DNA of 29,317 nucleotides from a virus (lineage: Duplodnaviria; Heunggongvirae; Uroviricota; Caudoviricetes): IMG/VR virus record IMGVR_UViG_2872164251_000007, positions 1 through 29,317 of that record; one strand, 5' to 3'. The notes beneath the pieces are model-generated. The model was not told the origin of the DNA. It saw only the letters and a program-made list of their open reading frames with translations, and ran no database searches. This document shows, piece after piece, positions 16,347 through 18,287 of the stretch; the stretch's first letter is position 1; every line of letters starts with the position of its first letter. The translations under genes were made by a program, and so were the position numbers.

Positions 16347-16434
16347 CGAGTAGGCAGCCTGACGGCTGCGGCTTGTCATGGTCTGCAATTACCGTTATAA
16401 AAACAGGCAATGTCATTGTCTTTCAGGTGGTTAT

Positions 16435-16800
16435 ATGGCCCGTTCAGCTAAACCCCGTAAACGTAAACCCGCCTCTCAAAGAAGCAAACTTCCCCGCTAT
16501 GTCGTGAAGCTTCACGAAGATGATTTTTTTGACGAAGAAGACGCAGAAGTTCTGCGCTTTGATAGTTTTGACGATGCCGTTGAATGCTGCGCAGACCTGA
16601 ATATTCCGTTCTTTGTGGATGCGGGAAACAAAAAGCTGGTCTTCTGGTTTGTACGTGTTGATGACGAAGGGTATCCGGAAATCGCCCGCTGCACGGAGCG
16701 GGAATTTGCGACCATTCTTGCCGGTATCAGCGCCAGCGGTATGTACTGCCCGGAGTGTGGCACGGTTCACTGGCCGGACGGAGTCGCCCCGCCCTTCTGA
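16435..16800 (+). CDS. IS91 small ORF (ORF121-like)
   Basis: 121-aa ORF starting MARSAKPRKRKP, immediately upstream of the transposase gene. Confidence 0.5.
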   Translation: MARSAKPRKRKPASQRSKLPRYVVKLHEDDFFDEEDAEVLRFDSFDDAVECCADLNIPFFVDAGNKKLVFWFVRVDDEGYPEIARCTEREFATILAGISASGMYCPECGTVHWPDGVAPPF

Positions 16801-17987
16801 TGCTTCCCCGTTTTGCCGATATTTTTCAGCAGGGAAACCGCTGGCTTAACTGGCTGGAGAAACAACCGGAAGGGGCAGTCCGTCCGGTGGTAATTGAATC
16901 AGTGACAAAAATCATGGCCTGCGGGACCACACTGATGGGCTACACGCAGTGGTGTTGTTCATCACCGGACTGTTGCCATACAAAAAAGGTCTGCTTCCGG
17001 TGTAAAAGCCGCTCCTGCCCGCACTGCGGGGTGAAGGCTGGCGCACAGTGGATACAGTATCTGCTGAGCCTGGTCCCCGACTGCCCGTGGCAGCATATTG
17101 TGTTCACACTTCCCTGCCAGTACTGGTCCCTGGTGTTCCACAACCGGTGGTTACTGGCAGAGATGAGCCGCATTGCAGCGGATGTGATACTGGAAATCTG
17201 CCATCAGGCAGATGTGGAGCCGGGGATATTCACGGTGATCCACACATGGGGGCGTGACCAGCAGTGGCATCCGCATATCCATTTATCGACAACTGCCGGT
17301 GGTGTGACGTCGGGCCACACCTGGAAAAATCTTCATTTTTACGCCCGTAAGGTGATGAGCATGTGGCGCTACCGGATAACACGGTTGCTGTCACGGAAAT
17401 ACCCTGACCTGGTGATGCCGGATGCGCTGGCAGCAGAAGGAAGCAGTAAACGGGAATGGAATCGCTTCCTGGACACGCATTACCGCCGTGGCTGAAATGT
17501 CAACGTATCCCGGGTGATGGATAATGCCACCCATGTGGCGGTGTACTTTGGCTCTTACCTGAAAAAGCCACCGGTGCCGATGAGTCGTCTGGAGCATTAT
17601 GCCGGTCAGGATGAAATCGGTCTGCGTTACAACAGTCACCGAACAAAACGGGAAGAATACCTGTTGATGAGTGGAGATGAGTTCATGGAAAGGTTCTCCT
17701 GGCATGTGGCGGATAAGGGGTTCCGTATGGTGAGGTACTACGGTTTTTTGAGTCCGGCGAAACGGCGGTTACTGGAAGAAGTGGTGTACATCATAACGGA
17801 GACAGTGAGAAAAACGGCGATGCAAATCACCTGGAGAGGGATATATCAGAGGTTACTGAAGGTTGACCCGCTGAAGTGCGTGCTGTGCGGGAGTCAGATG
17901 CGTTTTACGGGGCTGAAGCGGGGCTACCGTCTGGCAGAGCAGGTCCTGATGCATGAGCCGCTGGCCCGGATGCGGTGGTGCTGCTGA
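16755..17987 (+). pseudogene. IS91-family HUH transposase with in-frame TGA stop at 17493-17495
   Basis: The two track ORFs (16755-17495 and 17514-17987) are in the same frame, separated by GGC-TGA-AAT; zinc-finger cysteines in the N-terminal part, HUH and Y motifs on either side. Confidence 0.65.
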
Positions 17988-18287
17988 GAGCCGCAGAGGG
18001 GAAGTTGCGTCCATTTTGAGGGAAACGGAGCAAAAAACCGCCATTCATACCCTGAATCAATCAGAGCCATCCAGTTTAATCGTCGGTTCCGTTCATATGG
18101 AGCAAAAGTGGTGTTGAAGAAACATCCGTTTTGTGGTGTTTTTTTAATCTTTTTGGGGTTTTAATTCCTATCGATGAACTGGTGGCGAACTGTGCAGGGT
18201 TGGCGTAACCGGGTACGGAAACCGGCGAGCCTTTCGGCTCCCCCACACAGCCCGCCATAAATCGCGAATGTGACTGTGCAAACGATA

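Follow-up and report, generated by a model that had tools for sequence, protein, structure and literature searches.

Identity and extent of the element

The locus raises the question of how a rolling-circle transposase gene with an internal stop codon came to abut a truncated copy of another insertion sequence, and whether such a copy can still move. It lies within the 29,317-nucleotide stretch of DNA that was analyzed (the window). As a whole, it is very probably best explained as a non-autonomous ISEc37-type copy with a nonsense mutation at W232, which was spread in trans and underwent an adjacent deletion at an IS600 element.

Positions 16347-18175 of the plus strand are occupied by a complete IS91-family insertion sequence of 1,829 bp, an ISEc37-type isoform. 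DNA identity to the ISEc37-type copies of E. coli plasmids was 98.4-98.8% over the full length. With the interrupted Trp restored, the NCBIfam IS91 equivalog NF033538 scored 289.9 bits against a cutoff of 125. Pfam assigned Zn_Tnp_IS91 (PF14319) to residues 18-104 of the tnpA translation (4.4e-19), and the Y2_Tnp domain (PF04986) was split by the stop into two halves (2e-13 and 2e-18) covering profile positions 1-83 before it and 93-178 after it. At the sequence level, chance similarity as the source of these matches is excluded by the profile scores together with the DNA identity, and the IS91-like character proposed by the sequence-only reading is borne out by both. The element belongs to an ordinary type of mobile element that was known before, the IS91/ISEc37 type, and lies in a Shigella flexneri chromosome. 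An Rfam scan gave no match within it.

The ends were set where homology stops among copies in unrelated flanking contexts. The left end is base 16347, opening CGAGTAGG, and the right end is base 18175, closing TTCCTATCGAT. The sequence-only reading had located the left end correctly and had put the right end at 18174, one base short. The features recognized at and beside the ends are the following:

16347-16350, plus strand: terIS cleavage tetranucleotide CGAG (5'-CTCG on the transposed bottom strand), starting with the first base common to all contexts
16354-16369, plus strand: terIS subterminal palindrome GCAGCC-N4-GGCTGC, from an inverted-repeat search, with its stem in the folds of both strands
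18094-18175, plus strand: oriIS region, the last 82 bp, ending TTTTAATTCCTATCGAT and kept in six contexts to the last T
18176-18179, plus strand: target tetranucleotide GAAC (5'-GTTC on the bottom strand), abutting oriIS and native to the prophage

The CGAG start was common to the window and to the compared copies L001, L002, L004, L007, L013, L016, L018, and L020. A 5'-CTCG cleavage site at terIS with one subterminal palindrome beside it is likewise known from IS91, for which an 82-bp right end with its adjoining tetranucleotide is sufficient (PMC13181058). Folding of oriIS against shuffled sequence gave a z of about 0, and the palindromes found there were weak and had no statistical support. 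The two ends (oriIS and terIS) differ from each other, as in the IS91 family, and no terminal duplication is present.

On the 3' side of the right end, GAAC was found in the window and in L001, L002, L012, L013, L018, and L026, CAAG in L020, and GGAC in L004. The three commonest IS91 targets are GTTC, CTTG, and GTCC, which are used without duplication (PMC13181058). A specific tetranucleotide thus abuts oriIS without target duplication, and GAAC at 18176-18179 is the complement of the GTTC target, as had been noticed from the sequence. Comparisons with empty sites for IS600 and IS1 insertions of the IS91-type element were also clean and without target duplication. Elements of this type would move by rolling-circle, single-strand transposition, in which the HUH/Y2 transposase would nick oriIS beside 5'-GTTC or 5'-CTTG, terminate at terIS (5'-CTCG), and insert without duplicating the target. 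Single-stranded circular intermediates are assumed for the element by homology with IS91 (PMC13181058).

Genes of the element and the TGA at codon 232

Two genes were identified, the second of which is interrupted:

16435-16800, plus strand: orf121, intact, 121 codons, an ORF with a TGA stop that shares 1 nt with the ATG of tnpA
16800-17987, plus strand: tnpA pseudogene, HUH/Y2 rolling-circle transposase, 395 codons, interrupted at codon 232 as judged from its translation against intact copies
17268-17282, plus strand: HUH motif H157-P-H-I-H161, upstream of the stop
17493-17495, plus strand: in-frame TGA at codon 232 in place of a family-conserved Trp (TGG), from comparison with uninterrupted copies
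17544-17558, plus strand: catalytic tyrosine motif Y249-F-G-S-Y253, downstream of the stop

The intact orf121 had not been mentioned in the sequence-only reading. A homologous 366-nt coding sequence is annotated in L002, L018, and L020, and the overlap of the orf121 stop and the tnpA ATG (16800-16802) reads TTCTGATGCTT (ATGA). An orf121 with a 1-nt tnpA overlap is a feature specific to IS91, where Orf121 acts as a regulator, inhibiting transposition and favoring accurate cleavage at terIS (PMC13181058). By homology with IS91, the intact orf121 of this copy is a putative regulator.

The ORFs 16755-17495 and 17514-17987 share one frame and are parted by the single TGA, which agrees with the arrangement first described. 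The true tnpA start is the ATG at 16800 rather than the program-called GTG at 16755, and the resulting 395 codons equal the length of the uninterrupted genes from E. coli and Shigella plasmids. TGG stands at codon 232 in L001, L002, L003, L018, and L019 and in L012, the copy from S. flexneri VA-6. Trp occupied position 232 in all seven uninterrupted comparators, and the alignment placed it in IS91-type (94% identical), IS801-like (36%), and IS1294 (34%) proteins alike. A natural stop at this position in reference IS91 transposases, which had been raised as a possibility, was therefore not seen. As judged from the aligned codons, the interruption is a single G-to-A nonsense change (TGG to TGA) without involvement of a frameshift, as the sequence-only reading had suspected.

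There is next to no probability that the TGA arose from faulty sequencing or assembly or that it encodes a programmed selenocysteine. A single base separates it from the reference copies, but the same base was found in a complete genome (at two loci), in several drafts, and in several independent read-set assemblies. Against selenocysteine, relatives have Trp and neither Cys nor Sec, and neither a SECIS-like hairpin 3' of the stop nor any Rfam match within the element was found. Programmed stop-codon recoding was ruled out as well, with Trp in the homologues and UGA absent from all E. coli and plasmid copies.

H157, H159, and H161 as well as Y249 and Y253 were invariant in the alignment with IS91-, IS801-, and IS1294-type transposases. 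The catalytic domain is split by the TGA; it is encoded, but its expression as one chain is broken at codon 232. The zinc-binding domain and the HUH motif are retained in the 231-aa product, but both catalytic tyrosines are lost, so the copy is predicted to be incapable of moving on its own. The uninterrupted transposase gene of an autonomous IS is accordingly lacking, with the TGA upstream of both tyrosines. A block of 13 substitutions at 16823-16955 was found in the S. flexneri chromosomal lineage.

The junction with IS600

The left end of the element is joined to a truncated IS600:

15734-16346, minus strand: IS600 (IS3 family) fragment, 613 bp, with the natural orfB-side terminus (TGAGGTG...), cut internally

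The fragment codes for the C-terminal 188 aa of OrfB with its rve domains (Pfam rve 7.8e-26; NCBIfam IS3 241.9 bits) and shares 99.7% identity with two further IS600 copies of the window. It retains 613 of 1,264 bp, with full length and terminus set from L013, and its plasmid matches are annotated as IS600. It abuts 16347 without duplication, as the sequence-only reading had described.

Both junctions could be compared with intact counterparts. Intact IS600 reads GTCGCTCT-GAAC-TTGCG, which places the left junction exactly 5' of the GAAC of IS600 itself. The uninterrupted phage of E. coli FDAARGOS_944 reads ...CCAATC-GAACTGGTGG, which places the right junction at a phage-native GAAC, and its layout is aatctg followed by 97 bp and then GAACTGGTGG. 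Between the junctions, IS600 has lost 651 bp and the phage 97 bp, and the outer natural terminus of the IS600 fragment is still joined to phage DNA collinear with the uninterrupted phage. By chance, a break in IS600 would fall immediately 5' of GAAC or CAAG with a probability of about 0.7%. In S. flexneri VA-6, the IS600 junction is 3 nt longer.

The sequence-only reading had left the choice between one-ended insertion and adjacent deletion. In the former, the IS600 fragment would have been carried in with the element by transposition past terIS from an IS600-borne donor. Such events make up 1-10% of IS91 transpositions and are more frequent without Orf121 (PMC13181058). An insertion into IS600 would produce the left junction as observed, and the right one lies at the phage-native GAAC. 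However, the outer end of the fragment is the own terminus of IS600 and stands on phage DNA collinear with the uninterrupted phage, and orf121, the promoter of accurate termination, is intact. One-ended transposition would also place donor DNA against the base before GAAC and delete nothing, whereas 97 bp of the target are missing. This origin of the fragment is very unlikely. Of the two routes, the junction sequences fit insertion with adjacent deletion, because 651 bp are gone from IS600 and 97 bp from the phage and the outer IS600 terminus is intact, and one-ended transposition is unsupported.

Under insertion with adjacent deletion, IS600 would first have entered a lambdoid prophage between the ORF6N gene and the C4/isrK RNA region, an order of events that we infer. 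The IS91-type element would then have used either the GTTC internal to IS600 or the phage-native GTTC 97 bp away. A deletion would finally have joined the element to the other GTTC site, removing the 651 bp of IS600 and the 97 bp of phage. The deletion may have been transposase-mediated or may have run via a 5-nt GAACT microhomology. The alternative junctions of the first insertion would be phage-terIS, GACGCCAATC-CGAGTAGG, or oriIS-IS600, CCTATCGAT-GAACTTGCG, and either would mark the original GTTC site.

Occurrence and probable spread of the TGA allele

The exact 231-aa product was recorded on 40 contigs. Direct inspection of the sequence showed the TGA at two loci of CP032513.1, in VA-6, AKMX01, and JAAOVK01, and in six Logan run assemblies. 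In independent assemblies, the allele occurred at at least four chromosomal sites in S. flexneri, each with canonical ends:

Site 1: the phage site, GAAC-TGGTGG
Site 2: a clean insertion nested within a full IS600 that has a TAG duplication of its own, GAAC-TCTTTAG
Site 3: a clean insertion in IS1 insA, at GGAC
Site 4: beside an element of the IS605 family (OrfB_IS605/Y1_Tnp), with a TehB-family methyltransferase gene nearby, GAAC-GGTTTAA

The copy in the window and the L013 copy were 100% identical over 1,829 bp. The VA-6 and Logan contigs belong to assemblies of draft or short-read quality, where repeats may be threaded wrongly, and two linked, complete TGA copies were present only in CP032513.1. 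No exact match to the TGA allele was found in 5,426 complete E. coli genomes, in 72,556 PLSDB plasmids, or among the GTDB species representatives. Within the data searched, the allele appears confined to S. flexneri chromosomes. Uninterrupted tnpA genes of 395 aa were found on Shigella plasmids and in one chromosomal copy.

With both ends and orf121 intact, the copy would still be a substrate for transposase made elsewhere. IS91 mini-elements of 89 bp of terIS and 82 bp of oriIS have been shown experimentally to be acted on in trans (PMC13181058). Because the TGA allele is found at at least four S. flexneri sites with canonical junctions, its distribution suggests that an intact relative, such as the uninterrupted copies carried by Shigella virulence plasmids, most likely spread the defective copy in trans.

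The common stop would say nothing on the mobility of the defective allele if the copies had been inserted with TGG and the TGA had been copied between them later by gene conversion. In favor of conversion, identity among the copies is 99.8-100%, and in CP032513.1 no more than about 100 kb lies between them. Their SNP combinations (TGA on G/G, A/G, and A/T backgrounds, TGG on A/T) fit no single tree without reversion or recombination. These patterns would need one reversion (in L012) or recombination, and the order of events is uncertain. On the other side, the Logan contigs behind the conflicting SNP patterns may be chimeric repeat collapses, and the VA-6 copies are not homogenized, one of them having A and two having G at position 16735, and one having TGG at codon 232. 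Conversion would also require fixation of a null allele at no fewer than four sites. Gene conversion is an unlikely source of the shared stop.

UGA is the leakiest bacterial stop codon, and its near-cognate misreading in E. coli inserts Trp. The TGA allele could accordingly be alive, either through reading of UGA-232 as Trp or through a restart at GTG 17514 or ATG 17517 that would give a complementing C-terminal fragment. The residue lost is Trp itself, so readthrough would restore the exact wild-type transposase, and an in-frame GTG-ATG pair lies 19-22 nt past the stop. The several sites with canonical junctions, the two copies of 100% identity, and the failure of the plasmid search to find the allele on plasmids point the same way. 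In contrast, a search for stimulatory RNA structure 3' of the TGA gave a fold no better than shuffled sequence (z = -0.16). The only two substitutions downstream of the stop relative to the E. coli copies, M348I and G395C, are both non-synonymous and fit relaxed constraint, in a sample that is tiny. Readthrough is not needed because Shigella plasmids and one chromosomal copy carry intact transposase genes that could serve in trans, and trans action is proven for IS91 (PMC13181058). A live TGA allele is improbable.

It is just as doubtful that the element is an attenuated yet autonomous IS that spread itself, as a live allele would imply. The abundant 231-residue zinc-finger/HUH fragment could, together with Orf121, inhibit such a self-attenuated autonomous element, though we give this little credence too. 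If true, self-attenuation would explain why the TGA allele rather than the intact one is found at several S. flexneri sites. Spread of the defective copy in trans is retained as the preferred reading.

Significance

The element is otherwise known, and it is only a mild curiosity that the same broken copy stands at several sites of the S. flexneri genome. The result carries little weight beyond correct annotation. Of use are the exact ends 16347-18175 and the status of a defective, non-autonomous copy. The locus records a nested insertion of one IS in another and an adjacent deletion, which decapitated the prophage ORF6N gene beside the C4/isrK RNA region. With one nonsense allele at several sites, S. 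flexneri offers a natural test case for trans-mobilization of the IS91 family or for leaky-stop activity. In S. flexneri, IS91-type copies of both the chromosome and the virulence plasmid have been documented before, as substrates of rearrangement and plasmid integration (PMC3214074; PMC5629016, as IS1294; PMC7132871).

Comparison with known elements

The closest known element is ISEc37 as annotated in RefSeq, with copies on E. coli E110019 pE110019_65 and O39:NM pF8704-2_3, to which DNA identity was 98.4% over 1,829 bp. Its transposase WP_001299784.1 ('IS91-like element ISEc37 family transposase') is identical in 392 of 395 residues, the stop aside, and the ISEc37 copies have the same ends and the same GAAC target as the copy in the window. 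The copy in the window differs by the TGA at codon 232 and by the 13-substitution block of its lineage at 16823-16955. In addition, its orf121 is intact, whereas that of the E110019 and F8704-2 copies is split into two ORFs.

IS91 proper (X17114; PMC13181058) shares the 121-codon orf121, the 1-nt overlap, the 395-aa transposase, the terIS 5'-CTCG with its subterminal palindrome, an oriIS ending CCTATCGAT, and the GTTC/CTTG/GTCC targets. It differs in that the copy in the window is a nonsense mutant and in an amino acid identity of ~94%, measured on the RefSeq 'IS91-like element IS91' protein L020 and not on X17114. This value falls just below the isoform cut of 95% amino acid identity (PMC13181058).

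IS1294 and IS801 resemble the element in transposase architecture, the HUH motif, Y249/Y253, Trp-232, and the 5'-GTTC target. They are unlike it in their amino acid identity of 34-36%, in having no orf121, and in a terIS of 5'-GTTC instead of 5'-CTCG. Some papers on S. flexneri pINV name their copies 'IS1294' (PMC5629016). Identity of the present element with IS1294 was rejected, with 34% amino acid identity to the IS1294-type protein of pHN7A8 and both orf121 and the CTCG terIS present in the window. In PMC7373316 (Hawkey et al. 2020), all matches to the text 'IS91' were to IS911.

Mini-IS91 constructs and other defective IS copies share with the element their intact ends and a defective transposase, and they are moved by IS91 transposase from another replicon. 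The element of the window differs from mini-IS91 in being full length, and its trans-mobilization is one that we infer from the distribution of the allele.

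Identity and reading frame of the interrupted transposase

Both the ORF list and the raw sequence place the two transposase ORFs in one frame, separated by a single TGA (17493-17495), as the sequence-only reading had claimed. When 16300-18250 was searched by megablast against 5,426 complete E. coli genomes, 892 records reached at least 80% query coverage, the top matches being 98.3-98.8% identical and annotated as "IS91 family transposase" or "IS91-like element ISEc37 family transposase". The gene was an uninterrupted 1,188-nt CDS in all three fetched copies and, aligned to the window, extends from ATG 16800 to 17987; GTG 16755 was therefore rejected as the tnpA start. 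Codon 232 is TGA in the window and TGG in all three copies, with just 2-3 other residues differing, which bears out the nonsense change first suspected. Pfam located an IS91 zinc-binding domain at residues 18-104 and a Y2 transposase domain cut by the stop (profile positions 1-83 before and 93-178 after). With Trp restored, the protein scored 289.9 bits against the NCBIfam IS91 equivalog (cutoff 125), in line with the original IS91-like assignment, while an IS1294 identity was rejected, as the IS1294-type transposase of pHN7A8 is only 34% identical to that of the element. The element is of a known kind and carries a simple nonsense mutation.

The catalytic motifs lie on both sides of the stop:
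Residues 157-161, HUH motif (HPHIH), before the stop
Residues 249 and 253, tyrosines of the YFGSY motif, after the stop

Three proteins were aligned with it: one that RefSeq names "IS91-like element IS91" (94% identity), an IS801-like protein from Pseudomonas (36%), and the IS1294-type protein of pHN7A8 (34%). The HUH histidines and both tyrosines were invariant, and position 232 was Trp in all three, so that a natural stop in reference transposases, raised earlier as a possible objection, was not found. Because the stop precedes tyrosines 249 and 253, the 231-residue product lacks the nucleophiles and, we infer, is inactive.

Source and distribution of the stop codon

Over the stretches tested, the window is identical to the complete chromosome CP032513.1 of S. 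flexneri (locus L014). The exact 231-aa product was recorded on 40 contigs, and those named were from S. flexneri. The TGA was read directly in CP032513.1 (two loci), S. flexneri VA-6, AKMX01, JAAOVK01, and six Logan run assemblies; this recurrence across a complete chromosome, drafts, and run assemblies supplies the support for the stop that had been called for and led to the rejection of a read error. The 61-mer centred on the stop had no exact match among 5,426 E. coli genomes and 72,556 plasmids, where all copies, Shigella virulence plasmids included, differed by at least one base. Both fetched plasmid copies had TGG and an uninterrupted 395-aa gene, and the TGA allele was absent from all GTDB species representatives.

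Ends and target site

Copies in unrelated contexts delimit an element of 1,829 bp, with homology starting at CGAGTAGG (16347) and ending at ...TTCCTATCGAT (18175). The previously proposed start was exact, and the proposed right end (18174) was one base short. The left end is the counterpart of the published IS91 terIS cleavage site 5'-CTCG (PMC13181058).

Features next to the left end:
16354-16369, perfect 6-bp palindrome, next after the terIS cleavage site
16435-16800, intact orf121 (121 codons), overlapping the tnpA ATG by one base

Tetranucleotides after the right end:
GAAC, window and six other copies, reverse complement of GTTC as first read
CAAG, IS91-proper copy (L020)
GGAC, copy within IS1 (L004)

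On the opposite strand these read 5'-GTTC, 5'-CTTG, and 5'-GTCC, the three commonest IS91 targets among 277-292 mapped events (PMC13181058).

The IS600 junction

Intact IS600 reads ...GTAGTCGCTCT, then GAAC, then TTGCG. The left flank of the element stops exactly at ...CGCTCT, immediately 5' of this GAAC target; the chance of the break falling there is about 0.7%. The GAAC at the right junction precedes TGGTGG..., a sequence foreign to IS600. Where E. coli prophages lack both insertions, the ORF6N-gene flank (left) and the DUF1133/Q-like-side flank (right) are just 97 bp apart, reading ...aatctg, 97 bp, and GAACTGGTGG; the right-hand GAAC is therefore phage-native. The outer IS600 terminus (15734) still adjoins collinear phage DNA, and the absent DNA comprises 651 bp from IS600 and 97 bp from the phage.

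One-ended insertion and adjacent deletion had both been proposed. One-ended transposition was rejected, as it would delete no target DNA, yet 97 bp of phage are missing. The junctions support insertion at one GTTC site and a later deletion that extended to the other. Either the IS600 or the phage-native site may have been used first, and the deletion may have been transposase-mediated, the element end being joined to a nearby cleaved GTTC, or have occurred via 5-nt GAACT microhomology.

In VA-6 (L005/L015, AFGW01000035.1; L005 ~9538-9556), the corresponding junction reads tcgctctGAA followed by CGAGTAGG, compared with tcgctct followed by CGAGTAGG in the window, keeping three extra bases of the IS600 GAAC on the terIS side. 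Its outer flanks are unlike those of the window (YCII gene left, IS1 right). Mis-threading of the draft assembly through repeats is possible, but reads must contain the junction itself.

Surrounding features:
~3.9-5.1 kb (-), IS600 copy
12960-14570 (-), 536-aa tyrosine recombinase gene, just past the tRNA cluster
14705-15015 (-), tRNA cluster: Gly(TCC), Thr(TGT), Arg(TCT), CAT-anticodon tRNA
~15224-15733 (-), decapitated ORF6N gene remnant
18178-18262 (-), full-length C4 antisense RNA (Rfam)
18290-18365 (-), isrK RNA (Rfam)
~19.97-20.67 kb, IS1
~27.7-28.9 kb (-), IS600 copy

Both RNAs lie directly right of the element. The lost 97 bp separated these RNAs from the ORF6N (antirepressor-like) gene and contained the start of that gene, which is thereby decapitated; its annotated 186-aa ORF now begins within the IS600 end. 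The CAT-anticodon tRNA is Met according to ARAGORN, and its E. coli homologue is Ile according to RefSeq. In position, the recombinase gene corresponds to the E. coli prophage interval from tRNA to holin. The IS600 at 3.9-5.1 kb diverges from the canonical sequence after nt 1182 from the orfB-side end, 82 bp before the other terminus. The GCC/GGAC site of the window IS1 is intact, and an IS91-type copy occupies the same site in VA-6.

Copies of the TGA allele at several sites

Four distinct sites carried the TGA allele, each with canonical junctions:
Site 1, prophage site of the window (window, L014, L027, L030, L034)
Site 2, upstream of kch, within a full 1,264-bp IS600 that has its own TAG duplication (L013)
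Site 3, within IS1 insA, clean insertion between ...CACTGCC and GGACATC (L004)
Site 4, beside an IS605-family element, close to the gene for a TehB-family methyltransferase (L026)

The L013 copy is a clean nested insertion between GAGTTC and AAAGCC of IS600 and is identical to the window copy across all 1,829 bp. Of the chromosomal-lineage copies seen, only one carried TGG, namely VA-6 locus L012 (5548-7376, AFGW01000032.1), adjoining a TetR-family gene that lies upstream of a rut-like operon. The stop base is its sole difference from the IS1-site TGA copy among 1,827 aligned bases; it starts with CAAGTAGG rather than CGAGTAGG, an altered terIS cleavage site, and its exact protein is on record from one contig. 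This copy may be a revertant or a master copy.

IS91 transposase mobilises mini-elements in trans when 89 bp of terIS and 82 bp of oriIS are present (PMC13181058), so transposase produced elsewhere most simply explains the spread of the defective allele. Alternatively, gene conversion could have put TGA into several copies, and the SNP combinations among copies do require one reversion or some recombination. A leaky UGA decoded as Trp is a further alternative; no RNA structure was found after the stop. That several sites share one allele is a modest curiosity.

Compared with copies on E. coli plasmids and Shigella pINV, every S. flexneri chromosomal copy carries the same block of 13 substitutions in the 5' part of tnpA (16823-16955). 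The block resembles a recombination patch or the mark of a separate lineage, and it rules out recent seeding of the chromosomal copies from the pINV copies examined.

Relation to known IS91-family elements

Every sequence-testable feature that defines the IS91 family or the IS91/ISEc37 subgroup was found in the element, the one-base orf121/tnpA overlap being described as IS91-specific (PMC13181058). Earlier reports describe IS91-family copies on the S. flexneri chromosome, six in 2457T (described as clustered) and seven IS91-family features in M90T, as well as copies on pINV; chromosomal and pINV copies alike are known to take part in rearrangements (PMC3214074; PMC7132871; PMC5629016). The copies that PMC5629016 names IS1294 may be of the IS91/ISEc37 type found here; a true IS1294-type transposase is only 34% identical to that of the element.
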